A stretch of 63,750 nt of DNA, counting the filler, from Asterionella formosa (Eukaryota), in the NCBI GenBank assembly GCA_002256025.1. It is 10 parts of 10 records of this genome, joined end to end, with 100 filler letters (N's around TTAATTAATTAA, not from the genome) between each part and the next. Parts side by side here need not be neighbours in the genome. Positions count along the whole stretch, not along the records: positions 1 to 18,299 come from NKIB01004089.1; 9 more parts are not named here. One strand, written 5' to 3'. The position numbers were made by a program, and so were the translations under genes. The notes under the pieces were generated by a model that had not been told where the DNA came from, did not search any database, and was given only the letters and a program-made list of their open reading frames with translations. Positions 1-18,299 of the stretch are shown one piece after another. Each line of letters starts with the position of its first letter. Position 1 is the first letter of the stretch.

Positions 1-393
1 GAGTTCTACACAACCTTGGATCCTTCTACAATCTGTAAAATTCTGGAAATTTCTAGTTTTCATTACCTTCCATTTAAGACTCAATCTCTTATATATATCA
101 CTACATCATCAAGTGATATACTGACTCCTGGTACCCAGCATTATATCAAACAATTGTGATGACATGAATTCTAGGATGGGCGGGTTTGTACGTATTCCTT
201 TTGTTAGCACTGAGCTCTTTTACTCGTGCTCAAGCAGTTCTTCGTCGAAGTCCCTCCTTTTTGCTTTTATCATATATTTTTACCCGTACTACCTCGTCGC
301 GCATTATCGAATCATCTTTGTATTGCCTTGGACTTGGCTTGCTTCATTATATTCTGACTTAACCTCTCTTATTCTCTCGCTCTCCGACCCACA

Positions 394-1112
394 ATGGCAG
401 GTGTCGGTGTTGTAATTGGATTTGTTTCCCTCGCCTTCGTTCTTTCGTTTGTTGGTGCCTACTTTTTTAGCTCATTCATTGATTGCCTCACTAGACCCAG
501 TGAGGAGCGCCACAGAGTGCACTTTGAGTCATTACAAAAAATGAAAGAGGATGTCAAGAAACGGGTTTTGGATGCGCTATTTCCTGCCAAGGTAAGAATT
601 TTATTACCGAATGCTGGATTATACATGTCAACGCAACAATTGTTTCACGCTTACATTGCGTAGAAATATGAAATGGGCGAGGTTGATGCTGCAACAGAAG
701 GAAGCGAGGCAAAGCCTGTAGAAATGGAGCCATGCGCCATTTGTATTGAGCCTTTTAGTAAGTTCAAATTTCAAGGTTTCGCTTGACTTCAAGTGTGAAT
801 GTCCTGCCCAGTTTTCTCACAATTAAATGTTCGATCATCTGGGGGACACCAACAGAAGCAGGCGACATTGTTAGTGAGGGGCGTGGCTGTGCTCATCAAT
901 ACCATAGAGCGTGCATCCTCGAATGGGCGACCAAGCAAAATGATTGTCCCGTTTGCAGAAAAGCATTGTGGAACGACGATGACTACAAGAACGCTAAGAA
1001 TAACTTATTTCCGAGTTCTCTGCAGCCTGGTGGCGAAACAACCCAAATACCAACACAAGCTGAAATAGAGTTGCAAAATGTTACTCAAGCTGATACCGAG
1101 CATGCTGTGTGA
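394..1112 (+). CDS. RING-H2 E3 ubiquitin ligase with N-terminal transmembrane helix (ATL/RNF-like), 3 exons: 394-591, 664-757, 856-1112
   Basis: GT-AG introns at 592-663 (gtaaga...tag) and 758-855 (gtaagt...cag) join three pieces in frame. The product has a hydrophobic N-terminus (GVGVVIGFVSLAFVLSFVGAYFF) and CAIC...CAHQYHRACILEW...CPVCR, a complete RING-H2 ligand set. Confidence 0.88.
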
Positions 1113-1540
1113 AATTAACGAGTCTGTACCCTGTAAAGTTTTGTGCTGCATTGTGCTTCACGCGAACATTTTTGAGAAATGTGAAGGAAATTAACGTGGT
1201 ATCCATTTCTGATTACAGTGGGATCAAGTTTAAAAGTTCCTTTCTTGTTTCCAGTTAATCCTTAAATTTTGATTAATACTTCATGGAGATTACATGGTTG
1301 AATGGAATTATCAAATAGATTCAATACAACCACAAGCATCATGAGGAGTGAGTGATGCACTATTCCTGGTGATGTGTGTGCCACAGGTTCCCTTTTGGGA
1401 ATCATGTCATCACCATGACAAAAGAGCAAAGATAAATACCGTAAATCCCATGTTCCTGTTCTTGCTCCTGTTTCCTCTTTGTACATCTGGTACTATGCAC
1501 CCAAATATCTTACATGTGCAGAAAGAAAACATATTATTAA

Positions 1541-1698
1541 GGGTTGTCATGCTAAAATCGGCAATTTTATTGCCGAAAAATTCGATATGCCCCATATTGC
1601 CCTTAAATAAAAATTACTTAAGAAATTACTTAAAGCCTAAAAATTACTTTGAAATACCTGAATGGCAAGACGATAGCTGGAGCGGGAATTGCTAGAAA
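1541..1698 (+). mobile_element. Dispersed repeat A, copy 1 (probable DNA-transposon terminus with AATTACTT subterminal repeats)
   Basis: Clearly alignable to the reverse complement of 33661-33820. Starts TAA|GGGTTGTCATGCTA and contains three aattactt units. Confidence 0.7.
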
Positions 1699-1853
1699 TT
1701 TAAGTCCATGCGCCACCATGAACATCACCATGACTTGAATTCCTTGCTTTTTTTCTCTTTTATTGGCTGATTTTCTTCAATGGTGGCTACCTAATGTAGT
1801 TTCAGGATGCACCCAGTCATAGCTATGAGGATCTGCAGTCATATGCTAACCAT

Positions 1854-1920
1854 GGGGGAATGACATAGTGGCTAAGCACATTGTCTTCATAAATGAAGTT
1901 GTGGGTTTGATTCCTGTTTC
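1854..1920 (+). other. Degenerate tRNA-like sequence (tRNA pseudogene or SINE head)
   Basis: A-box-like TGACATAGTGG and B-box-like GGTTTGATTCC at tRNA spacing, with CAT in an anticodon-loop-like segment (tcttcataaatgaag). The acceptor stem does not pair well. Confidence 0.45.
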
Positions 1921-2299
1921 TTTTTTGGGAAGCAATTGTTGGGTTCAATTCCCACACTCCTTACCATCCCACATGGTCTTGCATGGTGTGCAAGAAAAAG
2001 TGGGTTGCCCCCCTACAAGCAGTGTGTACTGTCTCCCATGAACAAACCATAGATTGCGGGGCGCCGCATACCCACAATTGCAATATTATATAAGGTATTT
2101 GTTCACCTGCAGTAGCAAATCCATAGTTTTTCTTGTTGGCTCACATGAAACTCTTGAAATCTCGCGCCCATGATAAAAACGCATTCTGTACCGTGACAAG
2201 AAAAAAATAATTTGATACATTTGTAGCATTATAGCTAAGAACAACATTATCGGCCTGGCAAGGCAACAATCACCTTCCTCATCTTGCAATAGCTACCCC

Positions 2300-4348
2300 A
2301 TGACGGAATCAACAAGAATAAAACCTTGCTTTTCCACTCTTCACGAAGAGTGGCTGCTTAAGTATGGACAAGTCCTCGAACGTGCAGGACATGATGCTAG
2401 TCTGCTGGGTGAGATGGTAGCTTCTCGAATTGGGCTGTCAGGGGCACTCCAATGCGGTGAAATGAACGCGCAAGACAAGGACGTGGAAGCGGTTCAAGCA
2501 TTGTTGGAGAAAACTCTTTTGCGCATAGATCAGGATGCTGGTACTTTCGACATTTCTTCAATGGAAGCCACGATCAAGATGGAACAAGTAAACGTTTCAC
2601 AATCTGATGAAGAAGCGGATGCAATTGATGCTGATGGATTTTTTGAAATGTATCCTGAATGCGTTCGAGCGGAATGGGATGAAGAGGGATCTGAAAGTGA
2701 CGACGACGACGAGAAAATAATTGAGGAGCATCGAGCACGAGCAGACAAGAAGCAGCAAGCACTTGTTCCAGGACCGCCTTCTTCACAAAACTTCCTTCCA
2801 GATAATAATTCTGAATTAGCCAATGCGTCCGCTGGCCCAAATCACAATTCGACAGTCAATTCTATTGAACAGCGAAATCCTTATCAAAAAGCACCAATGC
2901 CTTCACTGCCTCGAACCAAAAATCCATACCATGCCGCCCTTCCAATAGCTCCAGCTTGCGTGAATGTTTCCGCTAAATACAACAATGAATTCTCCGGTCA
3001 GATGAAAAGCACTTCTTGGAACGAGCATCGAAATCAGCACAATCTATTTCAGACTGCCAGGGAATATGACGATGCTGGTGGCGGTGAGCACGATGAAAAT
3101 TATCAGCGACAACAAAATCAACAAAAGCAATGTGGACAGAACCGTTCACGCTTCGATCGACATCAGGATCATTCAAGTCAGGACCAACGTCTGCCTCCCC
3201 GACAACCACAAAAGCAGCTTGAACCAGAGCAGGCTCGACCTGCCAACATCCCAGACTCTCTGAAACGAAAGTTTCAACTTCCTACCAAGCGAGGTGCCAT
3301 CGACTGCAAAAATGATAGTAACAAGAAACAAGGGGCTGGTGGCATTGTTGGTATGCGACCGACGTCGTCAGGTTCCAATTCTGGAGGCGAGGAACTGCCA
3401 GAAGAGCTCAAAGGACTTGATAAGGAGTTGATTGAAAAGATTCAAAATGAGATTATGGAATCTGGTGAGACGATTACATTTGATGATATTGCAGGATTGG
3501 AAGATGCAAAACAAACAGTTCAGGAACTCGTGTGTTGGCCTATGAAGCGACCTGATCTCTTTACTGGCCTTCGCCGCGGTCCTAATGGTCTCTTGTTGTT
3601 TGGTCCACCTGGAACTGGTAAGACTCTGATTGGAAAGGCGATTGCGTATGAGAGCGGGGCAACATTCTTTTCTATTTCAAGTTCATCCCTGACGTCCAAA
3701 TGGATTGGCGAGGGCGAAAAGCTGGTTCGAACTCTCTTTGCTGTTGCTGCCTACCGTGAGCCCGCCGTGGTATTCATCGATGAAATTGATTCCTTGTTAA
3801 CGCAGCGAAAAGCAGATGAAAATGAAGCTAGTCGCCGAATTAAGACTGAGTTTCTCGTTCAACTTGATGGAACTGGAACCAGTGGGCGGGGACGAGTGCT
3901 TGTGATCGGTGCAACTAATCGCCCTCATGAACTAGATGATGCCGCTCGACGGCGGTTTGTGAAGCGCTTGTATATTCCGTTGCCGGCAAGATCAGATCGA
4001 GAAATCCTGCTTCGGTCCCTATTGATCAAGAACAATAATATTTTATCGGACGAGGACTTCACAAACCTTTCAAATGAATCTGATGGTTTCAGTGGTGCAG
4101 ATCTGAAAGCACTTTGCGTTGATGCCGCTATGGGACCTTTGCGTGAACTGGGGGCAAAGGCCCTGGAAATTGAGCCAAATGATATCCCACCAATTGCGTA
4201 CAAGCATTTTCGACGAGCACTTCGAGGAACCAAGGCTAGCGTGGCTCCAGCTGAACTTGCCATATACATTGAATGGAATTCAACTTATGGAAGCAGGAGG
4301 ACGAACGTTGATGATGACAGCGAAGACGACGGTGGTTCTACAAATTAG
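2300..4348 (+). CDS. FIGNL1: Fidgetin-like 1 AAA ATPase (spastin/katanin/fidgetin clade)
   Basis: ITFDDIAGLEDAK, Walker A GPPGTGKT, SSLTSKWIGEGEKLVR, Walker B FIDEIDS, SRRIKTEFL, GATNRPHELDDAARRRFVKRLYIPLP. Also has the fidgetin-like FQTAR motif and a Vps4-C-like end (YIEWNSTYG). Single exon. Confidence 0.88.
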   Translation: MTESTRIKPCFSTLHEEWLLKYGQVLERAGHDASLLGEMVASRIGLSGALQCGEMNAQDKDVEAVQALLEKTLLRIDQDAGTFDISSMEATIKMEQVNVSQSDEEADAIDADGFFEMYPECVRAEWDEEGSESDDDDEKIIEEHRARADKKQQALVPGPPSSQNFLPDNNSELANASAGPNHNSTVNSIEQRNPYQKAPMPSLPRTKNPYHAALPIAPACVNVSAKYNNEFSGQMKSTSWNEHRNQHNLFQTAREYDDAGGGEHDENYQRQQNQQKQCGQNRSRFDRHQDHSSQDQRLPPRQPQKQLEPEQARPANIPDSLKRKFQLPTKRGAIDCKNDSNKKQGAGGIVGMRPTSSGSNSGGEELPEELKGLDKELIEKIQNEIMESGETITFDDIAGLEDAKQTVQELVCWPMKRPDLFTGLRRGPNGLLLFGPPGTGKTLIGKAIAYESGATFFSISSSSLTSKWIGEGEKLVRTLFAVAAYREPAVVFIDEIDSLLTQRKADENEASRRIKTEFLVQLDGTGTSGRGRVLVIGATNRPHELDDAARRRFVKRLYIPLPARSDREILLRSLLIKNNNILSDEDFTNLSNESDGFSGADLKALCVDAAMGPLRELGAKALEIEPNDIPPIAYKHFRRALRGTKASVAPAELAIYIEWNSTYGSRRTNVDDDSEDDGGSTN

Positions 4349-4422
4349 GAATACTCATTACTTCACAAGAAAACAATATAGAATATAGACAAGATGATCT
4401 CAATATGATAATAATTCTAAGC

Positions 4423-7400
4423 TTAAGTATCGCTAGGCAAAAGAAAAACAAAGACTCTTGCTCCTACCGTGCAAACGTCTTCGTTGAACAAAGGGAAACT
4501 TCCCATTTCGGAGGTGATTCGCTTTCCATTTACAGTGACAACGTCTTTACTGGAATTCCCGGCACGAAACTGAAAATCGCTGACTTGTGAAGGTAGGTGT
4601 TCGATTATTGCTGCATTTTCCGTGCAAGTCCCCTCCATACCTCCAAGATGACAATCAATTTTCCCCACAGGGCCGCCAAGAGGAAGGGGGCCAAAGCCTA
4701 TCTCCCTACAGGTCTTTTCTAGGGTATTTCCAGCCCTTCCAATAATACAATGCGTGCTTTGTAATACAGTTCGGAAACGTTCGTTGTATCCGTTCTTTTC
4801 GTACTCGGCAGCGAGAGAAGCTACAGCAAATAGTTCATGAACTTGGGATTCAAAATCACACATAGATGCAAATGTTTCTGGGTTCCAACCAAAAAGAATC
4901 GGGGACAAGCCAAGCAGCATTGCTCCGCCACATGGTGGCTCACTATGGTGAGTGCCGACAGGGATACACGCTTCTATCGCCATGTCAACTTCTAAGGGTA
5001 TACCGAGAAAGGATACGCAGTACCCGTTTGATTTGACAGCAGCGAGGCGTTCAGCAACCATGTGAGCCAACTCTTCGTCAGTCTTTGTGGCAAAAGCTGG
5101 CTTCGGTCCAAGTACAGGGGCCCTTGAAACACTCTTTGCGAGAGTTACCAAGTCCGGCCTAGTATGCGTTTTCGCTTTCTTCTCACCAGGACTGTTGTCG
5201 ATAGCGACGCGCTTGACCCCAGCTTCAACAGTAGGTTTCTTTTTGCGCCCTCCCGTTCCTATTTTCTTCGCTGCTGCCTTCTTCTTTTCAGCTTTGGGAG
5301 CCACTGGAAAGATCTCACCAGCCCCAATTGCATCTTTCTCTTGCTCATATGCGGCAGCTGCTTCCTCGCCCTCCTGCTGAGCCTTCTTTGTGGCTTCTTC
5401 TCCATAAAGTATTAAATGAGCCCATGCGTATACAGCAGCAGCGTCCCATTCTGAATCAAATGTACCTAAGTAATGATTGCACCCGTTGAATGAAATTTGA
5501 CTTTGCCACCGATCGTGGCCTTTCCGCGCTTGACGACAAACTCCACGATACGCGTATACATGCCGCTTTGAATTTCCTCCGGTTCGCGACGTTTGACGGG
5601 GGTCGCGAAGAAGCGGTTTGACGTGCTTCGGAAGATCTTTAATGTTGATGATAGACAAGGCGGGCACCACGCTACTAGATCCACCACCCAACATCTCCAC
5701 CCCTCGTTCAGCTGCTAATGCAGCAGTGCTGTTTTCCTCATAGGGAATCCTTGTTCCATTGGCCATGAAGTTTAATTGAACCTCATTGTCGTCAGCGCTA
5801 GCATTGATTACATCATCATGCATACGGGCTGCCAATTCGACAGAATCAAGGAGGACCACGTCTTCGCTATTGCCATCTGTAAGTGATTTCCCTCTGATCT
5901 TGACAAAGTGTTTCCCAGCTGGATTAACCCAAACCCCTCGGTACCCTGGAACTCGAAACGACCCATCTGGGTCCTTATCCTTTGCAGACGCAGACACTTT
6001 GCCGCCTTTTGTTTTCTTGCCAACGACTCCAACAGGACCGTGTTGTTTTGCTTTTGATACTTTTCCTTCGCCTTCAGGTGGACTTCCATCATCCACAGAA
6101 CCAATAGGTTGTCCACAGGATCGTTCGTGATGAGTTCGAGCTTGGGAAGTACCGCAGTCGCTTCCACATGTGCGGCAAAGCCAGGTCCCTGGTGGAGAAT
6201 GTTGAGCTGCTTGATGTTGTCGAAGTCCTTGCTCCGAACCGAAACTGCGACAGCAACGAACTGCAAAACGATATGCAAGTGTACCAGTTACGGCACCACC
6301 AACACCAGACGACGTCGTCGACGAAGCAGTTAATACTTCCTCGCAAATATGCCCGTGAGTAGTTGACTGTTTCATGGAATCGATGATGCTTTTGAAGGAA
6401 GAAACGCCCAATTCATAACGCAACCATGAGAATTCTGAAGTTCCAAGCCACGACAGAGCCAATCGACGTGATTGCGAAATCTTGCCGTCCCCAACAAATA
6501 TCTCGTCCGGAATGATCATTGGAACTGGAGCATCATCTTCAAAGCTATTCTCTTGTGGAAGCTCGCCGCACATGGCCATAATAGCCAACTCTAGCATATC
6601 ATCTTGATTCTCTTCGGGGCAATGAACAACAACGCAACGAGCCAAGAGCTTGCGCAAGTATTCCACACTAGCAATATCCTGTGTAAGTTTACTCCGATCC
6701 CATTCATCTTTGATCACGTCTACAAAGTTGGGCATCAAGAAGCGCAAGAGACCAGGCTCAGGAATGAGGTTCCGTGGGTCTTTTTGTTTGGGCCACATTT
6801 GACATGTGGTTAAAATACGACGTCGGACAGTCAAACCGATACAAGCAGTTTTGATATCATTGTCTTCGCGTGTTACATCCCATTCGGCTTGATACGATGT
6901 CCCAGCAATTCCAATGTGCTGATCGTTGCAACTAAAAATACCTTCCTCCCAGAGTTGACCCAATAAACTATTTGGATCAGATTGTGCCGCTGCAAGCAGA
7001 GCGTAACCGTCATCAAGCAGGGCCACTTGCCACGGTTGTTGGCAAAAGTGCAGGTAGTCTTCCAAGAACGACGAATAAGAAGTCACCAAGACATGAAAAG
7101 ACGACGTCTTCAATCCATGCGCCTTGCTCCAGTGCTTACGAAGGAATCGACGCAGGGCTTTCGAACCAATGTAAGATAAGACTCGAAGTTTGGACGACTC
7201 TGGCTGCGGCCCCAAAGAAACTTGCGACCCGACCCCATCCATTTCTTGGGCAAATAATTTAACATTGGGAGTTGTAGTGACAATTAAATGAGGTCCATAC
7301 TGACCACTGGTATCGGCCATGGACTGAAGAAAATCTGCAATTCGTCCATGTCGTGACTTCCATTCCGCGTCATAAAAGACTGTATGTCCTGATTCCAACA

Positions 7401-8313
7401 CTTGTTGCATCCGGGGTCGACAAGTGGACTTCCAGGTTGATGTTAAACTGGAGGGATTTGGGTTGAAAGGAAATGGTGGAAGTGGATCTTCATCCATGGC
7501 ATCTTGAAAGGATTCATTGTCCTTCCATTGAAATGGATTCTCCAACTCAATTACACTGGACGGGGACTGACTTGCTGCATTGTCTTTTCGATAGTCCTGT
7601 CGTTGTTGTGATCGCCTGGCGGCGTTTTTTGCCAAGGCCGCCGCTCGATTTCCAAGTGTTAGGGCTTGCAAGACGACGGCCCCCATATTAACGACGGCCG
7701 GTTTGTCGTGCGTTGATGTGTTTTGCGGGACATTGACGTGGTCCAAGTCCGGCCCTGGTGTCAGTTCATTGAAGGCGATCGAGGCAGCACTGCAAAGGAC
7801 AGCTCGTGAAATAAGGGCACGGGAATCTGAGTTTCCTCCAGCAATAATTGTGGCTCCTTTGTTGCTGGGTGGTCCCCGTTTAGATTCCGTGGGAGTATGT
7901 TCGGAAGGACTTAAATTTGTGGTGCTTGAAACCTGTTCTGCTTTCAACTTGTTCTCTTTGTTTTCTCTGGCTCGTTCGAGCGACATGGTTCGCAATGCTT
8001 CTAAACACTTCCAGTCTTGCAGCACGGGCAAAGTGCAATCATCGACCTTTCTTACTTCTATAGCGTCGTCATCCTCATTGAGTGTGTTGCTGGACGACGT
8101 AGCTTGAACTATGCACATGGCACCGGCGTTGAACGCTAATCTGATGACGGAAGCCTTGTCACGACGAATGCGAGCTAGGCACGTTTCGATATCAAAATGA
8201 GATGACACTGCCATGGTGGATGAACTCCCTGGTGTGAGCTCCGTAAGGGCATCTCTAGTTCTCCAATAGGTCGGACCCGATGCCGGTTTTGATCTTGACA
8301 AAGTGACTTCCAT
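4423..8313 (-). CDS. Large AP2-domain DNA-binding protein with a degenerate SNF2-N-like region, two C2H2-like zinc fingers and an FHA-like C-terminus
   Basis: Uninterrupted ORF of about 1296 aa from the first ATG at 8313. Canonical AP2 (YRGVCRQARKGHDRWQSQISFNGCNHYLGTFDSEWDAAAVY) and a second degenerate AP2 (YRGVWVNPAGKH...LAARMHD). Zn fingers CCRSF...HQAAQH and CRTC...HERSC. SNF2-like GPHLIV...FHVLVTSY...WQVALLDDG. Confidence 0.85.
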   Translation of the reverse strand: MEVTLSRSKPASGPTYWRTRDALTELTPGSSSTMAVSSHFDIETCLARIRRDKASVIRLAFNAGAMCIVQATSSSNTLNEDDDAIEVRKVDDCTLPVLQDWKCLEALRTMSLERARENKENKLKAEQVSSTTNLSPSEHTPTESKRGPPSNKGATIIAGGNSDSRALISRAVLCSAASIAFNELTPGPDLDHVNVPQNTSTHDKPAVVNMGAVVLQALTLGNRAAALAKNAARRSQQRQDYRKDNAASQSPSSVIELENPFQWKDNESFQDAMDEDPLPPFPFNPNPSSLTSTWKSTCRPRMQQVLESGHTVFYDAEWKSRHGRIADFLQSMADTSGQYGPHLIVTTTPNVKLFAQEMDGVGSQVSLGPQPESSKLRVLSYIGSKALRRFLRKHWSKAHGLKTSSFHVLVTSYSSFLEDYLHFCQQPWQVALLDDGYALLAAAQSDPNSLLGQLWEEGIFSCNDQHIGIAGTSYQAEWDVTREDNDIKTACIGLTVRRRILTTCQMWPKQKDPRNLIPEPGLLRFLMPNFVDVIKDEWDRSKLTQDIASVEYLRKLLARCVVVHCPEENQDDMLELAIMAMCGELPQENSFEDDAPVPMIIPDEIFVGDGKISQSRRLALSWLGTSEFSWLRYELGVSSFKSIIDSMKQSTTHGHICEEVLTASSTTSSGVGGAVTGTLAYRFAVRCCRSFGSEQGLRQHQAAQHSPPGTWLCRTCGSDCGTSQARTHHERSCGQPIGSVDDGSPPEGEGKVSKAKQHGPVGVVGKKTKGGKVSASAKDKDPDGSFRVPGYRGVWVNPAGKHFVKIRGKSLTDGNSEDVVLLDSVELAARMHDDVINASADDNEVQLNFMANGTRIPYEENSTAALAAERGVEMLGGGSSSVVPALSIINIKDLPKHVKPLLRDPRQTSRTGGNSKRHVYAYRGVCRQARKGHDRWQSQISFNGCNHYLGTFDSEWDAAAVYAWAHLILYGEEATKKAQQEGEEAAAAYEQEKDAIGAGEIFPVAPKAEKKKAAAKKIGTGGRKKKPTVEAGVKRVAIDNSPGEKKAKTHTRPDLVTLAKSVSRAPVLGPKPAFATKTDEELAHMVAERLAAVKSNGYCVSFLGIPLEVDMAIEACIPVGTHHSEPPCGGAMLLGLSPILFGWNPETFASMCDFESQVHELFAVASLAAEYEKNGYNERFRTVLQSTHCIIGRAGNTLEKTCREIGFGPLPLGGPVGKIDCHLGGMEGTCTENAAIIEHLPSQVSDFQFRAGNSSKDVVTVNGKRITSEMGSFPLFNEDVCTVGARVFVFLLPSDT

Positions 8314-8660
8314 GATGATTCTTGAATGATTTACACGCAATTTTTATTTATCTTGCTTTATGTACGAGAGAGATTGACCGTAGCCTTCTTGTGTGCTCGG
8401 TTGGGTAAAGAACGCGATTACTGATCGAAGAATGGCATTATCACCAGTGAATGATTCGTCTGTACGATAAAAATGTACTCGTAAACTGGTAGTAGGACTA
8501 TATTTCTGATCCGTCATGGTGCTTTCGTGTTCCTCCTTATGCATTGTTGCCACTTGTTCTCTGTTGCCACTATACTCCTCCTTGGTTTCTTCTGTACGAT
8601 AGCTAGTAGCTACCGGTATTCGCATCCAAAAAGTTGCTGTATCATGCTGATTTGCATCGT

Positions 8661-8760
8661 AGGTACCTGGTACCAGGTACCAGTTACCGTTACATATGGA
8701 GGTGCGTATCATGATATCCACATTTTCCATGAAGTATCGAGTCTACCTACCAGGTACTGT
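8661..8760. promoter_or_regulatory. GGTACC/CCAGGTACC palindrome cluster upstream of the AP2 gene
   Basis: aggtacctggtaccaggtaccag lies about 350 bp 5' of the ATG at 8313. The same motif family recurs upstream of most genes in the window. Confidence 0.4.
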
Positions 8761-10148
8761 AATACTAGAACGGTTGCTGGGACGTGGGTATGTAGGCTAG
8801 GTAATACCGGCAGTAGGTAAAAAAGCTGTTGCTAGGAGTCATTAGTAAAGGAAATTCAAATTGGTAAATGAAAGTGGACACACGATATGAACAACCACAG
8901 TGCAAATCACGACGAACCAATCATTGCTGGACTAAAGAAAAATATGTTAACCAAAGGTTTAATTCAACTAATGCACACTATAAATTAATTTCATACCCTG
9001 TTGGTTTTCCTGCTGGTACCTGGTAGCAGTTGGCTGTCTGCAATAAATCCACATGAAGGTTCAACATCCATTTTGCTGAATTGCTGAAGGCAATACACGC
9101 CTAAAGTGGTCTCAGCCCTGCAAGTGAACATGTATACAAGGAGGCATGCAGGAGCCACCAAGAAGGGTATTTTTGAGGCAAGCAATTTGTAAGCTACAAG
9201 CTATTGCTGCACCATTAGTAGGTAGCTGATCATCTGTGATCATATGCATACCATTACTAGAATGAACTTTGCTTGCATTGAATGGACAGAGTGCGCAGCA
9301 TTTCCTTTGATGATCATTGCGGACACAATGATTGCAGAAATTCGTACCTTTCCTTGCTTGTTGTTTCCTGATGATCCCTTCTTCTTAACACAACAACACA
9401 ATGCAAACCAGAATCATAGCTAAATTTCACCTGATTTGTTGTCTTGCCTTTCTTGTTTGACTGTTTCACATCGTGCTGCATGTATTTTTCGTTTCGTTTC
9501 CTCTTTCGTTTGAATTGCGCTTTGTATAGACTCCATCAGCACTTTGTCGCTTTCCCTTTTGCTTCCAGAAGGATTCTTGCAGTGCTGACATCTGCATTCT
9601 ACATTGTTCGTATACATCCCTTGATTATTGTGCTGCTCCTTCTGTGTGTTACCCAGCAACCGAAGCCAACTCTTCATTGTTATCCCATCAGCCCTGACAT
9701 TTAGGGTAACCAAAGTCGCAGCATTTGCAGAAGATGTGTGAATTACATTCCTCCAATTCCGACTCTACAATTAACCTGTCTTGACATGTTGTACATGTAT
9801 CATGGATGTCATTGAATTCGAAGATGCCATTGTTTTCCAAATGTTGTGTATTCTCACTCATGGTGGATTGTTGCGTGTTCGGTTGCTAGTCATCAACAAA
9901 TATTTTCCATGCCATTGGTGGGTCGTCATATGACACATATGTGTTGATCATAGTAGTATAAGGTATATATACATCAGGTGATATCATAGACTGTATCTAT
10001 ATATATATTTAGCTAATTCGGAAGGAATATGTGTAAATAGACACAAATTTCCACTGATATAAATATTTCAAATAGAATCATTTCATTTCAAATTGTTCCA
10101 TAGAAATTCGTAGTTCCGAGAAATTTCGGAACCCTGAGCAGCAATATT

Positions 10149-10226
10149 ATAAATTTTGCCTAGGGTTTCAAATTCAGGAACCTTAAAATATAAATTTTGC
10201 CTAGGGTTTCAAATTCAGGAACCTTA
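10149..10226. repeat. Tandem duplication of a ~37-bp unit
   Basis: ataaattttgcctagggtttcaaattcaggaacctta occurs twice, separated by 4 bp. Confidence 0.85.
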
Positions 10227-10227
10227 C

Positions 10228-10680
10228 TAAGGAAACCATTGTATACACTCTACAGATAGGATTAAAATATATCCAGTATTCACCTTGTTTTTGTTTGTCT
10301 CCTGAAAAGTGCTGTGGCAATTCACCTCTCACCATGCCAATCATGATCCATCATGCCCAGTCGTCTGAAGCGAAATGAATTCATTGATGATGCCTGTAGC
10401 GATTCGTCTTCAAACAGATGTGGTTAGATGGTGAATTGCTTGGCTTCTCGTCGTGGGATTCATGTATTCTTATCGTACATATTTCTTCGGACAAATGATG
10501 ATTCCAATGTATCTGATGTTGGCGGCAAGTTTTTGCACCAGGCATTTTTGAGCTTAATGGATATTCTAGCTAAGTAGCCTACTTTTGTGCATGGTACTGA
10601 TACAACCATGCGTGGTTTAAGCTAAAATTTAACACGTACTTTGAACACACTATAATATTTATACTGTAGACTCAGTATTA
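10228..10680 (+). mobile_element. Dispersed repeat B, copy 1 (non-autonomous DNA-transposon end, PIF/Harbinger-like TAA|GG boundary)
   Basis: About 450 bp alignable to the reverse complement of 34845-35296. Similarity begins at TAAGGAAACCATT in both copies. Confidence 0.7.
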
Positions 10681-11401
10681 TCTTCTTTAAGAGTCCAGAA
10701 TTTTAACTTATATCCTTCACATATTCATTGATTTTATGTATGCCCCATTTCGTAATCACAATTATAATTCTCATTCTATCCTGCCTGGCATTGCTCAATT
10801 TGGGCTTTCAACAGGGACCTTTCTTCGACTTTTGATTGATCCCATCATCTGCTGCTTGTTATGCTAGCTAGTTAGAGCGGATTAGTGAGTATCACATTTG
10901 GAATGTAGAAATTATACGTCTCGAATTGGCAATTTGAGTGCTTCTATTCTCCCTTTGATTGCTTCCGTCATTTGGATTTGTTCCATGCTATCAATTTCGC
11001 TCGATTGTAGCTGGAGAGGGTATTGCCACCATGATGATAGTGTGCCTGTTCACCATTAAATGACTGCCATGGTACTGTATCTGGTCCGGGAGGTAGACAG
11101 GTAGTACGGTATGTGGTAATATTTCTCTGCCACAAATGACAACCGGTACCCATGCGTAGTATTAAACTACCCAGTATCATTGTACTTACTACCGGTAGTA
11201 TTCTTACTTGACCTACATTTTATTGTACTCCCCTACATACGATCCATTCATAGATTTGATTGTTATGCTTGACTGTGTTCTGCCTACGGCGAGACTACGT
11301 TATTATTTCTGTTGTCGATAATCAAATTGTGTTGGTGCTTGTATACTGTGTACCTCGTCATTCAATAGCTGGACAGTCGTTGGACCTACTTCTCAGCCAG
11401 C

Positions 11402-13300
11402 ATGTATCCCATCAGTATCGCCCTCAAGGCGAAGATTGCTTTGGACGGAAGTGAAACGGAGAAGCGCGTTGGAGCCGTGCTGTTCGACGAAACAGTTCAA
11501 GTGCTCTCGTCCTTTGAACTCAATCAAATTGCGTCGCTCACGTACAGCGATGGAACATGCGATCAGATTTTCGAATTGCTCGGACTCGTCATGTCCAGTC
11601 CTATGGACGTTACCGTCCTCTCGCTGGAAAAGTCTGTGGTTGTCACAACACATGCTTTGATCTATGGAAGCGAAAAGTGCGTCAGTTCCGCGTTGGCCCT
11701 TTCTCGCTGGGTAAACCGACTTTGCGAGTTCAATACAGTATTGCTGGCTCAAAGCCAAAACGGAGTTTCTAGTTGGTGGAACTCTGTAAAAGGTGGCGCT
11801 GTAGACAGGGGCTTCCCCGTTCGCGAGGTGGCTCAGAAGTTGCAGCTCTTGTTGAATGATACAGAAAAAATACGACAGGTTCGAGCCGACAAGGCTGATC
11901 CTAATTCATTGGTTCCCGTGGGTGATGATCGAGTAGCCTATGTGAGTGACGAAGTCAGGCTGTTCATGCTCAAGAAGCGAATTCAAGAGCAGCAACTGAT
12001 TATTACAAAATCGAATTTGGCCAAAGCACAGGGCGGATATGGCGGCGGATATCAAACAAAGGATGGTCAGACTGTGGTTGGTGCAGCTCACAGCTTGGAC
12101 GAAATGATTGCCTACGCAGACCGGGAAAAGAAGAAATACAGTGACGATGGACCGATCTATGTAAGGCCCGAAATAACAACAGCTAATACTTGGCAGCAAC
12201 CAACACCAACAATTGCTCCAATTCCATCAGCGACGACGGATCTATTGGACATGGGGGCTCCAGCACCAGTATCAGAACCTTTTATGAATTTGATAGATTT
12301 TGAAACTATTGCCATCACGTCACCAGCACCCGCCGTGATGGATTTTTTCGCTGCATCCCAACCCCAACAACCCTCAACCGCTCCACTCATTGATCCCTTC
12401 GGCGCTGTTTTGGCCGCACAGGTAGCGCAACCTAAAGTCAATGAAACACAAGATTTGCTAAGTATTATGACCATTAATAGCGTCACATCAACACCTTCTC
12501 TTCCTCCATCAATCTTTGATTTGACGGGTCAACCTTCGATCATCAATAATTCCATACAAGCAATGCCTTCATCGACTCCTGTTCCGACAATTTCTGGACT
12601 CTTACCACCAAAGCCACCAGTTGCACATGTTATGACGAGTAATGAAGATCGATTTATGGCACTTGACATGTTGTCTGGACCAGAGACAACGAATTCTGGA
12701 TCCCTGTTGAGCGGATTGGAAGCTCAAAATCGAATTTTGGGCTTAGGAAGTAGTCCAAAGGGGAATGAAGCAATGACAAGTAGTTTTGGAAGTCAACTTG
12801 GGAGTGCTACAACTATTCTCGCAAGCACCATGAGTGGTTTATTTGGTGGTGGACCTCAGGGTTTAACAGTGCCGAAATCAGGAAATGATGTATCGACTAT
12901 GATGGAACTGGGTCCAAGTTCATGTAGCTTGCCACCAGATCCCCAAACTGGTACACCTCATACAATTCACACATCCTTGACTGGTAATAGCCATTTTATG
13001 GGAGATATGGCAATGTCGTCGTACGGAATGGGCATGACAATGGGTGGTGATTCATATTTGACTAATAAAACTGATTACAGCTCTCCAGGTGCAATGGGAA
13101 TGCCTCCTCCTTTGCCCATGGAATCACCACCATTCCCAACAGGTGGTATACCTGGAATAACAGAGCGTTACGGTCCTCCTGAAACAGACAACGATGACAG
13201 TGGCTTTGGAATTGCCATGGGAGGTACCATTGGGTCTGGCCTGGGCGAACCTGTTGGACCTCCTCCAGGAGCGCCTCCTCCTCCACCACCTACCCTGTAG
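11402..13300 (+). CDS. ENTH-domain (epsin-like) clathrin adaptor
   Basis: N-terminal ENTH features (ELNQIASLTY, KSVVVTTHALIYGSEKCV, DRGFPVREVAQKLQLLLNDTEKIRQVR). The disordered tail has clathrin/adaptor-type motifs (DLLDM, NLIDF, LIDPF, DLLSI) and a poly-Pro end. Confidence 0.85.
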   Translation: MYPISIALKAKIALDGSETEKRVGAVLFDETVQVLSSFELNQIASLTYSDGTCDQIFELLGLVMSSPMDVTVLSLEKSVVVTTHALIYGSEKCVSSALALSRWVNRLCEFNTVLLAQSQNGVSSWWNSVKGGAVDRGFPVREVAQKLQLLLNDTEKIRQVRADKADPNSLVPVGDDRVAYVSDEVRLFMLKKRIQEQQLIITKSNLAKAQGGYGGGYQTKDGQTVVGAAHSLDEMIAYADREKKKYSDDGPIYVRPEITTANTWQQPTPTIAPIPSATTDLLDMGAPAPVSEPFMNLIDFETIAITSPAPAVMDFFAASQPQQPSTAPLIDPFGAVLAAQVAQPKVNETQDLLSIMTINSVTSTPSLPPSIFDLTGQPSIINNSIQAMPSSTPVPTISGLLPPKPPVAHVMTSNEDRFMALDMLSGPETTNSGSLLSGLEAQNRILGLGSSPKGNEAMTSSFGSQLGSATTILASTMSGLFGGGPQGLTVPKSGNDVSTMMELGPSSCSLPPDPQTGTPHTIHTSLTGNSHFMGDMAMSSYGMGMTMGGDSYLTNKTDYSSPGAMGMPPPLPMESPPFPTGGIPGITERYGPPETDNDDSGFGIAMGGTIGSGLGEPVGPPPGAPPPPPPTL

Positions 13301-13575
13301 CAAACATTTGAAAGTACCTAGCTGCATGTCTTTAGGTGTAAATGAATGGAATGCTTCTTCAAGTGTATCAAGTCACTATTCCAAGGTGGTATGTAAATAG
13401 ATTACTTTGATGTATTATATCTGGTATTCAACTGATGTGGTTCTGCTATTTTTTATCGCCTTCATGTTTACTACATATAATACATTATTATTCTTTCTAC
13501 CATTCTTTGTGTAGCTACAGAAAATCATATTCTACACCAGTACATATATTGAATTGCCAGAGTATCTATTATGTA

Positions 13576-14611
13576 CTCCCTCCATTCATGCATACTGGTA
13601 GTTGCAACGAAACTTTAAGTAAGTGCCTCTCATGAAGTGCAAGCTCCAATGATTCCCTGGCCAATAACTCCTCCTATTTAAAAATCATTCCAAATCAAAT
13701 GGTGTATATAATATATGTTCTAAGTAATCTAGAATTAGGTGACCCTGACCCCGAGTTTTTGGTGCGTTTTTTGTAGAATTGTGTCCCAATTGGAATGTTT
13801 GCTCCAGACCCCCCCCCCTTTTTGTTGACCCTTTGTTGGTCAATAGACATAAAAAGAATCATTTAACAACAGAACAGTAACAATACATCGCCGATTGTTT
13901 GCTTCGCAACCTCAAATGGGAGGCTAATGATATCGTGAACATGGATGGCCAGCTCGTCATAAATCTAGGCATACACCAAACTTTAGCTATATTGTTCGAC
14001 ATCTGTAGATTTAATTATTGTTGACCAGAAATGCATGCTTGTTAGTGTATATAACTTCATTTTTATGGCGTCTTAAAACTATACTACTGGGATAGAATGT
14101 GTTATGTGGCGCCCCTTGGCAACATAAGTAACTGAAATCAGCCAAACAAACGTGGTGACGCCGGCATGTATGTAGCAGAGGAAGCATGCCTGTAAGTGTA
14201 TTGAGCTATATCTTTTTGGTATTCATAGCCGATATTACATACATGGATTCAGGTAAGTACAAACTTTACTTAAATTATATGACATCTGTAGAACGAAATA
14301 ATTATGTTTAGAAATGCATGCTTGTTAGTTTATTTAGCTGTTTCTCTTTGGTGGTAATAGCCGATATTATACACATGGATACAGGTTGCTCAGTACGCTG
14401 GCCAACAAAAACCACCCTAATCGATCCACATGTATCGCTATTTATTGTTATACTCGCCTAAATTCACTAATCTAACTGACACACCGCCCTGTCGCCTGTA
14501 TCACCTCGCGTAGAAATTTATTTTGAATTTCTATGCAGGCGTTCCTTAAAGGACGTGAATCGAGCTGAGCTAGTTGCTGAGCGTGTTGCAATTATACATG
14601 AATGGAGGGAG
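13576..14611. mobile_element. Stowaway-like (Tc1/mariner) non-autonomous element, 1036 bp
   Basis: TA|CTCCCTCCATTCATGCATA ... TATACATGAATGGAGGGAG|TA gives an 18/19-bp TIR and a TA target-site duplication. No ORF. Internal direct duplications at ~13998-14060/14281-14340 and 14225-14254/14357-14386. Confidence 0.88.
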
Positions 14612-15581
14612 TATTCCGAAATATGCGTTTGTCAGCCATACATTTTTGAAAGTAGCTCTACCACATTGAACAAAAGCCAACCCAATCATAGTTTGGGTCA
14701 ATACACATCATGATGTGTCACGTTGGTCGAAAAAGCAAATATATTTTAGCCACCGCATCGACCAAGACCAAATCTGCTTTGTCTTGGCAAACGGCAAACT
14801 ACAACCCAATTATTACATGAGTCATGCTTGCTTCGTCACAGTGGCGCCAACATTTTGGATCCCCTTTCTGTTCAATTCTGAAAGCCTTTCCGGTCACCTC
14901 CTCCTCTAGATTTGATACGTAGTACTAATGTTGCACCTCCAACATCTCTGCCTCCACAAGTCAAAATCAATTCAGAAACCAATCCAACCAAATCAATTAT
15001 AGCATCGTTTTCTGCTCCTACAGGCCCAATCTGAACATGTATGAAATTTCGTTACGATGACAAAAATGTGTGAGTTGCAATTGTTAAGGAAAATGTGTTG
15101 ACAATTTTTCAAACCATTTTCCGCTGGCCTATTTGCTTTTTCACTTTTTATTCTACTCCCTGTTTGTCATTGTTACGCCTTACCTTTCGATTTCTGTTTC
15201 ATACTACTTTGGTTGCTTCACAACATCGAGCCGAAATTTTCGATCCTTGTTACAATCATTCTTGTGCAACCAATTTTTCATGCAAATACGATTGGTATTC
15301 CATGGACCATGCATTTTTGATGTGGCTTCTATTCCTTGATTTATAAACTTGCTTGACTATATCAACTCAATTCCTGAGCGACATTACTCATTGGTCACTG
15401 CTCAAACCTAAAATTGGACTGCCGAAATCTCCAGTGTGCTCCTATATTGTCCCCAAATAAAAATTACCAAGAGATTCCAAAAATAACTGAGACACCCACA
15501 TGATCTCATCGAAAAACAAAAAGATTGCTAGGGTCGTGGCTGTGTACATTTTAGGAGACAGGCGGAGCATGTGATTTACGT

Positions 15582-15636
15582 TACTTGCGCCACCCAGCCT
15601 CGAACACATGTAAACTCGCATGCAAGAGACCACCTC
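15582..15636 (+). repeat. Dispersed repeat C, copy 1
   Basis: tacttgcgccacccagcctcgaacacatgtaaactcgcatgcaagagacc is nearly identical to 35621-35676. Confidence 0.75.
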
Positions 15637-16162
15637 AAGCGTGTCGTACCAGTTAAAAATGGCTTTGAGCCACTTCGAATGGCTTTGAGTCACTTAACGA
15701 TATAATATTCACTGTGTACACATAGGTTTTTTCTAATTTTCCAGTTATGACTATTTTTAGTACGACAACGTTGTTTCTGACGTTGCGCCGGATACAACAT
15801 ATCTTGTTGTCGATTAGGTCTTATGCGTTAGCTAATCAGATTAATGTGTCCGAAAGTAGCGATTGGCCAAAAAGGGTCAAAACAAATATTATACCATTGA
15901 GCCGGCATCTGCCGGAAATGCACATAAACATTTGTGAAGGAAACCTAATATCTAATATTTATATAGTTACGTTTAACCGCCACGGACAATATACTATCAT
16001 AGCAATAAATGAATCAATTAGTCACTCAGAGTAAATGAATGCAATATTTCTTGAAGGCCAAAAAAATCGCGCCATATTTATACGTGAGCCCGTAAATCAC
16101 ATCAGAAATTGCTTCCGATGCACCACAAAATGAAGCAAATCGCGATCATCCTATTAACAACG

Positions 16163-17770
16163 ATGAAACCTACAGCAAGAAAACAGCCTCAACCATCCAA
16201 AAAGTACAAGGTGATACCTAGTAACTCATTGGATAAGACTGTTGTGTTGCTTATTTAAAATAATTTAGTAATGGAATTAGAAACTTTAAAGGTAAATAAC
16301 AACGGGAAACTACCATATGGCGCAATCTCGAATATTGTTGCATCTACTAAGGCGGCTACACTGACTTGGCTAACAAAACCTATGGTCCAGTACCATTTAC
16401 AGAAGCTAAATCAGGCAGTAAAGTCATATAATTCACTAGTACAATTAGCTGCTTCTATGACACCAAATGATTCACAGTCGTTGGCAGGACACATCTCATC
16501 CGTTTCTACCCTGACTGCGAATTCAAGTATTAATGTCCATCTTCCAGTTGATGCATTCGTGAGTAGTGATGTTACAAGTGTTGCAAGGATGAAAAATAAT
16601 GAAGGAAAAGAAAAAGAAGCAAATAATGAAAACGGAAGGGTGAGAAAAAATGAAGAGAAAGAACAAGAAGCAAATAATGAAGATGGACTTACCTGTGAAG
16701 CTTTGGGGAATGTCCGTGAAACTGACAACGATGATGCCACCCTTTATTGGCGTCTAAAGGGCAGCACCAACGCCATGTCACGAGATAATGAACAACGCAT
16801 TGCACGAGCAATTGCTGAGGCCTCACAGCAATATAGGGTTGTTAAAAATCATGCAAAACATAACAATACTTATGTTGCAAGAGGTGAACTTACAAAAAAA
16901 ATCCAAGTTTACAAATAGAAGAACCAAGTTGCACCTTCCACCCATATCAGTTCCTTCACAGTCCGTACACGTGCTAGGAGAAATACTTCTTTTGCCACCT
17001 CCTTGAAGCAGGGAACCCCGTCAACCTTACTTGGTGCAACTGATTACCCAGCTTGCTAAAATGCGCACCCCAATCACTGTTGCTAAGGGCCTTCAACTTG
17101 CCAACTCAATTATTGAAGGGACCCCAACATATGACAAATTAATTGCATGGAAAGAGAAGCACAACATACATTACCGAATCCATGGAAACTGTCAACTTGG
17201 ACTGGGATACTGGCAGGGATTCACAAAAAGAAAAAACACCTTGTGACAAGCAAGAAGGCAGTGAAATTTGAATCCAAGAGAGCCGATTGGTGCACCTTCC
17301 AGAATTTCGAAACCATGTACAATGACGTTTATGAAGAGATGGTGAGGGGAGGAATTGCCATGAAGCTGAATGCAAAAGTCAAGCTCAGCAAGGAAGGAGG
17401 ATTAATTGTTGAACATGCACATGAAGCTTTTGGGTTAGAAACAAAATACGACCTGATATGACCAGACAAGCTCTTGTTTGTGGATGAGGTAGGATCAAAT
17501 ACAACTCAAGCAAAAGATGGGAATGTTGGTGGTGAGAAACGACTGTCTGCAACTGGTCAACAACCTCAGATACGCAGTGCCACAAAGGATAGCCACTTCA
17601 CAGTCTTGGGTTTCACAGCTGCCAATGGGATGCCTTTGATGTGTGCTATAATATTTGCTGCAAAAGAGCTGGAACAAGCATCTACAACGCCGATTACTGG
17701 TACAGCCGCCACAAAAAAAGGTAGTCAAATATGATCACCCAGATTAATTATTCGGGTGGCCCAACATGAC
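16163..17770 (+). pseudogene. Fragmented pogo/Fot1-like (DDE_1, CENP-B-related) transposase
   Basis: Successive same-strand ORF pieces (16271-16918, 17031-17246, 17147-17461, 17474-17734) broken by frameshifts and stops. CENP-B-HTH-like segment (LITQLAKMRTPIT...LGLGYWQGF), first catalytic region LFVDEVGSNT, and FTVLGFTAANGMPLMCAIIF. Confidence 0.75.
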
Positions 17771-18299
17771 GAATTTAGTTACGTACATAATTTATGGGTA
17801 TGACATCACATAAAAATATAATGCATCATACAATATATATGAACGGAGTGAACTAAAATAGTTTCGACAATTTCCATAATTATTTTAGAAACCCACATAA
17901 TTTTTGGGGCCAACTGACAATATTTTCTGGCCACACAAAGAAAAATTTGTTCAGTAATAATCTCTATAATATGGTCCTTTTCTCAACAATTCGCAACATT
18001 CCCGTTCACAAATATTCTTCACTCTGACTACCATTAATTCAGTTTGTTTGCTCCTATTTTATCTTTACTTTGATCACATTAATACCTCAAGGTTAAACAA
18101 ATATATATTCTAGTCAAACAAATAATTATGTGTAACCAATCAACGTTTAAATTAAATTCTAGCTACAATCGCAAAATCAATCAAATTAATTGCTTCGCTA
18201 TATAGTTTATATTGATACTTTCTATAGATCGCAATTCTCAGACCAATACAACAAGCAATGGATGTTCATTCTTGCAGCTGGATGCTGTAACTAATCGCA

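Follow-up and report, generated by a model that had tools for sequence, protein, structure and literature searches.

What becomes of a chromatin remodeller once its motor is dead, and what might the remnant still do? The question is raised by a gene of the diatom Asterionella formosa that lies in a window of 63,750 nucleotides (the whole stretch of DNA that was analysed, filler included) from assembly GCA_002256025.1. The contig that carries the gene makes up positions 1-18299 of the window, and from 18300 onward the window consists of other contigs, separated by paired runs of 44 N. The gene encodes one long chain in which a disabled first lobe of a Snf2-family motor, very probably of INO80 descent, is followed by two zinc fingers, two AP2 domains and an FHA domain, an architecture much of which had been proposed from the DNA sequence alone (hereafter the sequence-only reading). 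The answer favoured here, with moderate confidence, is that the INO80 gene of stramenopiles lives on without catalysis, as a chromatin adaptor directed to DNA whose DNA reader can be swapped.

A single conserved gene

4423..8313, minus strand: the gene, a single exon of 1296 amino acids, with a pseudo-ATPase lobe 1 (very probably INO80-derived), two zinc fingers, two AP2 domains and an FHA domain
8512..8547, minus strand: zone where three RNA contigs terminate, a weak hint of a possible transcript 5' end about 200-230 bases upstream of the ATG, as contigs cannot define a start

The minus-strand open frame runs from 8343 to 4423, and its first ATG, at 8313, gives a protein of 1296 residues. RNA contigs from three runs (two studies) each cover the gene in one piece, from 4100 to 8512, 8547 and 8523, without gap, joint or indel, and a fourth run covers 4423-8313 in fragments; the contigs also extend into the convergent neighbour, and they attest colinear sequence in RNA libraries, not strand or level. 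The sequence-only reading had treated the frame as one gene and had named beforehand RNA data that split it as the outcome that would count against this, and the contigs span it unsplit. A mis-joined or spliced gene is excluded, as the RNA contigs are jointless, seven homologue transcripts are marked complete and the domain order is constant in metagenome loci. A start at Met34, as in the homologue P0002, is less likely because a conserved W-R-x-R-D motif sits upstream of it, at residues 17-21.

The survey of diatom orthologues that had been suggested with the sequence-only reading returned 118 homologues of residues 250-1296 at E <= 0.001 (among 8000 candidates scored). Those that are named come from diatoms, both centric and pennate, except one labelled Alexandrium, and the seven complete transcripts are among these 118 rows; one copy was found in the A. 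formosa genome. Many of the diatom homologues (L045-L081) have short introns within the second AP2 domain, AP2-b, at several different positions, and gene callers therefore cut the homologous proteins short before the FHA domain, whereas the A. formosa copy has no such intron. By region, the mean consensus share is 0.94 in AP2-b, 0.87 in the linker before it and 0.59 in lobe 1. The gene is confirmed as real, conserved across diatoms and intron-free in A. formosa. In two homologues, P0205 and P0208, a truncated diatom relic is joined to unrelated flanks, and these are possibly decayed duplicates or gene-calling errors.

A motor lobe without a motor

6616..7458, minus strand: ATPase lobe 1 (very probably INO80-derived), residues 286-566, a complete fold with a family-specific insert after Walker B
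7342..7371, minus strand: Walker A remnant, by alignment; Asp315 is kept, and the INO80 Gly, Lys, Thr and Gln are replaced by Trp318, Arg321, His322 and Arg324
7003..7020, minus strand: Walker B remnant, by alignment; the first Asp is kept, the catalytic Glu is mostly Asp, then Gly
6364..6615, minus strand: conserved helical linker, residues 567-650, where INO80 has its Rvb-binding insertion and lobe 2

The motifs from which the relic had first been recognised lie where they were placed (GPHLIV at 7296-7279, WQVALLDDGY ending at 7003, the finger motifs at 6255-6115). The relic itself had been put at about 7350-6650; it is real, but that extent is short, the true span of 7458-6616 being the whole of lobe 1. 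The Pfam SNF2 match of the query is weak, at 17 bits. The AlphaFold model of residues 1-744 (predicted local distance difference test score, pLDDT, 81; predicted template modelling score, pTM, 0.75) matches Snf2-family motors at Z 16-18, and over the whole lobe it aligns 246 residues of SRCAP (Z 18.3, root-mean-square deviation, rmsd, 3.3) and 228 of INO80 (Z 17.1, rmsd 3.3), although the fold alone cannot separate subfamilies. Lack of any profile or structural match to the SNF2 lobe had been named as the finding that would speak against a relic; both kinds of match were found, the profile match being to solved INO80 at E 8e-14.

The catalytic motifs were compared by alignment with 26 intact INO80 proteins, and the counts that follow are of homologues with a residue at the position. 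Contrary to the first impression that no Walker A could be recognised, its remnant is recognisable in the alignment at 7371-7342. Asp315 is present in 107/107, Trp318 in 107/108 and both Arg321 and Arg324 in 108/108; the Walker A lysine, found in 26/26 intact INO80 proteins, is arginine in all 108 homologues, and the threonine position is histidine in 70/108, so that the GKT motif is not intact. GxGKT-like strings do occur in 10 family proteins, outside this position. Walker B had rightly been called degenerate: D434 is invariant (112/112), the next residue is D in 89 and E in 19 of 112, G436 follows in 109/112, and DDG stands in most homologues in place of an intact DEAQ or DEAH. Motif III is altered too.

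The second RecA lobe, already reported as missing, is indeed absent together with the Rvb-binding insertion, because Helicase_C finds no match in the query or in 28 homologues and the motif VI pattern occurs in 0/229 family proteins, fragments included. Residues 641-1296 fold as fingers, AP2 and FHA, not as lobe 2. The linker at residues 567-650 is modelled with pLDDT 85-98 by blocks of ten and has a mean consensus share of 0.52. As far as the available text of PMC7171469 goes, it is this insertion of INO80 that binds the Rvb ring.

To judge from the sequence, translocase work is impossible for such a protein because the Walker A Lys and Thr are replaced, the Walker B Glu is mostly lost, and lobe 2 and the Rvb-binding insertion are gone. 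Walker A and B changes of this kind abolish hydrolysis, and judging from its residues the relic protein is almost certainly without ATPase activity. To judge from its conservation, lobe 1 is nonetheless still under constraint: 47 of its positions are at least 90% conserved in diatoms, 17 of them as in INO80 and 30 new. Between motifs Ia and II the relic also retains a TSY motif and arginines, which we take to have a role in DNA contact.

Descent from INO80

The donor had been described as SNF2/SWR1/CHD-like, of which the Snf2 family stands, and within it the evidence points to INO80 specifically and not to SWR1 or CHD. A profile built from 23 diatom lobe-1 segments matches eight INO80 chains at 45-55 bits, with other Snf2 subfamilies at 30 bits or less and SWR1 at 28, and the less diverged oomycete relic described below scores 105-121 bits against INO80, 70 against SRCAP and 61 against SWR1. 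In a tree of 46 of the 62 aligned segments (231 columns), the 17 relics group in a single clade (100/100), nested in a branch that they share with the 16 INO80 rows (100/98), and a tree constrained to join relics with SWR1 is rejected (p value of the approximately unbiased test, p-AU, 0.012). A SWR1 or CHD origin is rejected by the profile scores and, for SWR1, by this test as well. On these comparisons the relic very probably descends from INO80; it is INO80 by descent and does not belong among active INO80 proteins.

Relatives beyond diatoms

A HMMER scan of the lobe-1 profile against 1.84 billion representatives gave 509 matches at E <= 0.001, of which 150 were listed. True INO80 proteins are among them, with DBINO present in 15 of the 27 scanned. 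Among the matches listed, relics intermediate between the diatom members and true INO80 come from Tetraparma gracilis, the oomycete Thraustotheca clavata, one entry labelled Symbiodinium and several unnamed sources. Starting from the Thraustotheca protein, eight further relatives were found, in Achlya, Saprolegnia and Aphanomyces. Diatom and Saprolegniales proteins match collinearly over the pre-lobe helix with its NPF motif, lobe 1, the finger pair and the FHA domain (hhalign probabilities 99.5 and 96.2, the latter for the FHA domains, which are homologous), and the finger pair is 49% identical over 45 residues. The oomycete FHA domain reaches the Pfam cut-off in four of the eight full-length or near full-length Saprolegniales proteins scanned. 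The Walker motifs are lost in the Saprolegniales proteins as well, with residues that differ from those of diatoms and more of Walker B gone.

The oomycete proteins differ in detail, finger 1 having an ordinary C-x2-C spacing, finger 2 being C2H2 and the FHA domain lacking its first insert. The largest difference lies between fingers and FHA, where Saprolegniales have two CXXC domains, far above the Pfam cut-off, and no AP2; the nearest solved chains of these CXXC domains are those of KDM2A/B, DNMT1 and MLL, and domains of that type read unmethylated CpG. Aligned in this way, the family has a slot between fingers and FHA that is occupied by a pair of AP2 domains in diatoms and by a CXXC pair in Saprolegniales, and the truncated gene had gained its finger pair and C-terminal FHA domain before diatoms and oomycetes split. 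Since relic, fingers and FHA are kept in oomycetes without AP2, they make up the ancestral core and the DNA reader is the part that changes. By sequence, then, the architecture is not diatom-only.

Three relics (P0218, P0222 and P0234), unnamed or oddly labelled, have no finger pair and a weak AP2-like C-terminus. P0234 is labelled Symbiodinium microadriaticum, and it may be either a contaminant or a real alveolate member.

Fingers and AP2 domains

6199..6345, minus strand: zinc finger 1, C2H2 (C657, C687, H700, H705), with a 29-residue loop between the cysteines
6115..6177, minus strand: zinc finger 2, C2HC in diatoms (C713, C716, H729, C733) and C2H2 in oomycetes
5764..5946, minus strand: AP2 domain a (AP2-a), divergent, by profile and model
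5569..5676, minus strand: highly conserved linker before AP2-b, by consensus share
5389..5556, minus strand: AP2 domain b (AP2-b), the most conserved part of the protein and likely its main DNA reader
5161..5298, minus strand: Lys-rich disordered stretch, a candidate nuclear localisation signal by sequence, with pLDDT <50 over most of it

Two zinc fingers had been seen at about 6255-6115 and are present, except that the first begins earlier, at Cys657 (6345), 29 residues before its second cysteine. Its ligands C657, H700 and H705 are found in 118/118 homologues and C687 in 110/118, with the core residues F691 in 118/118 and L697 in 117/118; the ligands of finger 2 are each kept in 116-118 of 118, and Cys and Arg occupy its core positions.

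The two AP2 domains, the Lys-rich stretch and the FHA domain were all located as first described (5946-5764, 5556-5389, 5298-5161 and 4932-4432). The domain taken for a degenerate AP2 at about 5945-5820 is the divergent AP2-a, which matches ERF096 at E 6e-5 and AtERF1 at E 0.013 and is modelled as three strands and a helix; against PF00847, 3/26 members match at E <= 0.1. AP2-b, at about 5550-5400, had been called canonical. It is an AP2 domain, with profile matches to WRI1 at E 1.4e-7 and TEM1 at E 3e-4 and with the WRI1-DNA structure at Foldseek rank 2, but canonical it is not, as none of 12 members matches PF00847 at E <= 0.1. The best Pfam PF00847 score is 18.7 bits vs a cut-off of 33.3, so that both AP2 domains fall below it; the three-stranded sheet with a helix and the profile match to solved AP2 that define the fold were found. 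AP2-b is predicted, with good confidence, to bind DNA.

The FHA domain

4432..4932, minus strand: FHA fold, in which a helical insert follows strand 1 and the phosphothreonine motifs are worn

The FHA-like pattern reported at the C-terminus does fold as FHA. In the model of residues 641-1296 (pLDDT 75, pTM 0.41) the C-terminus is an FHA beta-sandwich (Z 12.6, rmsd 2.2, 100 aligned) that starts at about residue 1128 and has a helical insert of about 45 residues. A wide fold search is led by 47 rows of FHA-type chains, with Atlas matches at 0.92-0.93 and low counts of shared features. PDB sequence searches with the diatom profile and with an oomycete stretch matched no FHA chain, and none of the 12 FHA matches in the A. 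formosa genome is close to the FHA of the relic gene. It may resemble the MCRS1, FOXK or plant FHA2 type.

A phosphopeptide-reading module had been suggested on the strength of this domain. FHA domains bind phosphothreonine through GR, SxxH and NG motifs, and of these the arginine of the GR motif is present in 44/81 homologues and the serine in 68/81 (Thr in the A. formosa copy), the histidine position is Ala in at least 90%, and no Asn-Gly was found at the binding loop. With such residues a phosphopeptide role of the diatom FHA is doubtful; oomycete copies keep the Arg, Ser and His.

Helices before the lobe

7936..8190, minus strand: N-terminal helices, residues 42-126, possibly a remnant of the HSA region, by model
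7762..7845, minus strand: helix of residues 157-184, which by structure match can be laid over the helix (post-HSA-like) that precedes the motor in SRCAP, BRG1 and Sth1
7531..7686, minus strand: long helix of residues 210-249 and NPF motif before the lobe, agreeing in order with the helix and NP motif that precede the motor in INO80

Ahead of the lobe, VIA alignments start at model residues 158-168 vs chain residues 223 (SRCAP), 540 (BRG1) and 392 (Sth1), helices that are presumably post-HSA. For the pre-lobe helix and NPF motif hhalign gives P 0.002 for oomycete vs INO80 and 0.026 for diatom vs oomycete, with low probabilities. Pfam HSA and DBINO have no match before the relic lobe, and an Atlas search with residues 36-285 gave no usable hit. 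In complex predictions, residues 36-260 with A. formosa Arp4 scored 0.35 where the best of three controls scored 0.00, the runs agreeing in at least 24% of contacts with partner pLDDT of at least 35; complex scores of 0.60 or below that passed came from 5/78 solved complexes and from all four mismatches that passed, so that a predicted pairing of this grade is more often wrong than right unless it was likely beforehand, and it lends weak support. From the models, the N-terminal helices are possibly a leftover HSA region.

INO80 in A. formosa and other stramenopiles

The A. formosa genome has 40 SNF2 matches, and the best locus for fungal INO80 scores 685 bits with SRCAP vs 447 with INO80 and reads as an intact SWR1; this search was a loose first look in which 31 of 74 candidates were scored. 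Among the best-scoring candidates no intact INO80 was found in this fragmented assembly, by which its absence is not proven, and DBINO has no match over its cut-off in the genome. Ten actin-family matches read as actin, Arp1, two Arp4-like proteins, Arp6 and an Arp11-like protein (by sequence, one Arp4 having been checked against PDB), and neither Arp5 nor Arp8 is among the ten. The two Arp4-like genes are L036 and L037, L036 being the one checked. The YL1_C matches read as Swc2 and a Swc6-like protein, with no Ies6 among them.

In the source data of Funabiki and colleagues (PMC10538959), INO80 is not detected in 10/10 stramenopiles, three of them diatoms, by reciprocal BLAST with the human protein. 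The same table lists INO80 for Plasmodiophora and for 3/3 ciliates, and is blank also for several non-stramenopiles, e.g. Emiliania and Guillardia. INO80 has been reconstructed in the toolkit of the last eukaryotic common ancestor in the accessible part of a preprint (bioRxiv 10.1101/2021.11.30.470311), and the available text of PMC13589156 gave nothing on the distribution of Arp5 and Arp8.

What the protein may do

An adaptor role for chromatin complexes seems to us the probable one, by some way short of secure. In this account an INO80 motor gene was truncated to a dead lobe 1 and gained fingers and FHA, with the reader slot filled by lineage. AP2-b, aided by AP2-a and the fingers, would select DNA sites, the dead lobe would hold the DNA backbone or a partner through its still conserved surface, and the N-terminal helices and the non-canonical FHA domain would recruit proteins, among which the Arp4-actin module or the SWR1 and ISWI motors, both intact, are possible partners. 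Such an adaptor would work independently of ATP, marking promoters for other enzymes and moving no nucleosomes. That a dead remodeller-derived part is retained in a predicted DNA-binding protein, as had been proposed, is supported by the lobe-1, finger and AP2 matches.

A more far-reaching version is tentative and, on present evidence, rather unlikely. Here an early stramenopile would have dropped INO80 sliding and rebuilt the gene into a one-chain hub. Helices derived from HSA would still carry Arp4-actin and the dead lobe would act as a clamp on DNA, with fingers and FHA in the place of former accessory subunits and a reader cassette that changes with the lineage (AP2 in diatoms, CXXC in water moulds). 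The hub would deliver SWR1 or acetyltransferase complexes to promoters. If true, no remodeller before it would have been shown to become a sequence-directed factor throughout one branch of a eukaryotic supergroup.

Several points weigh against an INO80-derived adaptor. Sequence and profile tests of the relic N-terminus vs INO80 N-termini (HSA/DBINO) were not significant, and searches of the A. formosa genome for PAPA-1, NFRKB and MCRS_N were empty, with no positive control, in a fragmented assembly that was loosely searched. In the family searches no member turned up under the name of Phytophthora, Pythium, brown algae, Phaeodactylum or Bigyra, so that diatoms and, by lineage, oomycetes are the only groups in which the published absence of INO80 can be tied to the relic gene. 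Relic branches in the tree are long, and its INO80 and SWR1 rows were chosen by similarity to relics; the clade does not rest on that choice alone, because the PDB searches are free of it and the fingers and FHA held in common give it separate support.

The main alternative, which we consider improbable although it deserves to be taken seriously, is a stand-alone AP2 transcription factor in which the relic is a folding scaffold for helices and fingers, with no link to remodeller subunits. It would account for AP2-b and its linker being so much better conserved than the lobe, for the 30 of 47 conserved lobe positions that differ from INO80 and for complex-specific subunits not being found in the A. 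formosa genome, and it has a precedent, which also counts against the adaptor, in MOM1, whose partial SNF2 domain is dispensable in the accessible text of PMC2507757. It does not explain why oomycetes, in which AP2 is lacking altogether, retain relic, fingers and FHA, and the invariant, surface-type Arg321, Arg324, Arg388 and Arg392 suggest a binding role for the lobe.

There is a slim chance that the dead lobe controls DNA binding allosterically, through a nucleotide or other phosphate ligand that it binds in a remodelled P-loop. Asp315, Arg321, Arg324 and Asp434 are invariant at Walker A and B positions (107-112 homologues), but a tryptophan, Trp318, takes the place of the loop glycine in 107/108; and as the oomycete relics differ at the site and have lost more of Walker B, a nucleotide site is not shared family-wide.

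Slimmer still is the chance that the relic stems from a duplicate of INO80 (or SWR1) and that an intact INO80 is present and was missed. The fragmented assembly and loose search would allow it, as would a published table that rests on reciprocal BLAST with the human protein. INO80 is, however, highly conserved, other Snf2 genes were readily found (the 40 matches), the PMC10538959 table is blank for three diatom genomes and for seven from other stramenopiles, and a SWR1 origin is rejected. An old duplication with later loss of the intact copy cannot be told apart from direct decay. Least likely is a split motor, in which a lobe 2 encoded by another gene would join lobe 1 in trans to give an active or partly active remodeller. 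The whole lobe-1 fold and a Walker B Glu in 19/112 speak for it, and the idea was once proposed for MOM1, according to PMC2507757. Against it, the Walker A Lys is Arg in 108/108, and each contig that matches fungal INO80 in lobe 2 (18/18) matches it in lobe 1 as well, so that no orphan lobe 2 was seen among the 31 of 74 candidates scored.

The relic family suggests that INO80 in stramenopiles was converted rather than lost, and it offers a natural experiment in DNA-reader swapping on a fixed scaffold. For diatoms, where AP2 genes appear few, it supplies a candidate regulator that is single-copy, strongly conserved and expressed; one other AP2 gene was found in the A. formosa genome, on two identical-looking contigs, at L106:1375-3135 on the minus strand with a Pro-rich region before a C-terminal AP2. 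Two questions become testable in laboratory diatoms: how promoter nucleosomes are positioned and H2A.Z is turned over when INO80 is missing, and what lobe 1 is capable of by itself.

Neighbouring genes

Tail to tail with the relic gene lies an AAA ATPase with a Vps4_C-like end, fidgetin-like by reading, at 2303-4348 on the plus strand. An AAA ATPase neighbour is also downstream in 8/44 metagenome loci, two pairs of which are near-duplicates, and the RNA contigs cross both genes. An ENTH-domain protein with a long low-complexity tail is at 11402-13300 on the plus strand and is not beside the relic gene in the 44 loci. A short frame at 762-1112, also plus, has a RING-H2-like Cys/His pattern and is probably the last exon of a membrane-anchored RING protein.

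Comparison with known systems

The nearest family in every sequence test is the INO80 ATPase, with which the protein shares the lobe-1 fold, the subfamily-typical stretches between motifs Ia and III and the helix and NP motif before the motor. The relic differs in its disabled Walker A and B, in having neither lobe 2 nor the Rvb-binding insertion nor a DBINO match, and in its fusion to fingers, AP2 or CXXC, and FHA. YY1 is a zinc-finger factor. YY1 and MCRS1 are separate subunits in INO80 complexes in the available text of PMC7171469.

Like the Saprolegniales proteins (e.g. OQR99517.1), the diatom protein has relic, finger pair and FHA in the same order; unlike it, they have two CXXC domains for AP2, an FHA without the first insert and a less diverged relic. 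Their UniRef label, 'Chromatin-remodeling ATPase INO80', is automatic, and the catalytic motifs are absent there too; diatom members are labelled only 'AP2/ERF domain-containing protein', so that each label captures half of the picture. With the plant two-AP2 factors of the AP2/ERF type, such as WRI1, the diatom protein shares tandem AP2 folds, and WRI1, TEM1 and ERF096 are its nearest solved chains, but its own AP2 domains are below the Pfam cut-off and are set between an INO80 relic with fingers and an FHA domain.

Non-catalytic reuse of remodeller halves is already known, from MOM1 and Hda2/3, both of which concern lobe 2. Arabidopsis MOM1, derived from CHD3, likewise began as a remodeller and became a chromatin regulator without catalysis, in which half a SNF2 domain is left, but it keeps lobe 2, and some plant homologues retain the whole ATPase (PMC2507757, accessible text); the relic keeps INO80 lobe 1 across diatoms and oomycetes and has DNA-binding domains fused to it. 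For an INO80 lobe-1 relic with fingers, swappable reader and FHA, no description was found in the full-text literature, from which subscription papers are largely missing. The single Snf2-like lobes of yeast Hda2 and Hda3 lack the ATP-binding motif, bind DNA and serve to anchor a complex on nucleosomes; Hda2 and Hda3 differ in resembling lobe 2, having coiled coils, serving a deacetylase and having no sequence-specific reader (PMC7793584, as far as its available text goes). By analogy, Hda2 and Hda3 may be the best model for how the relic works.

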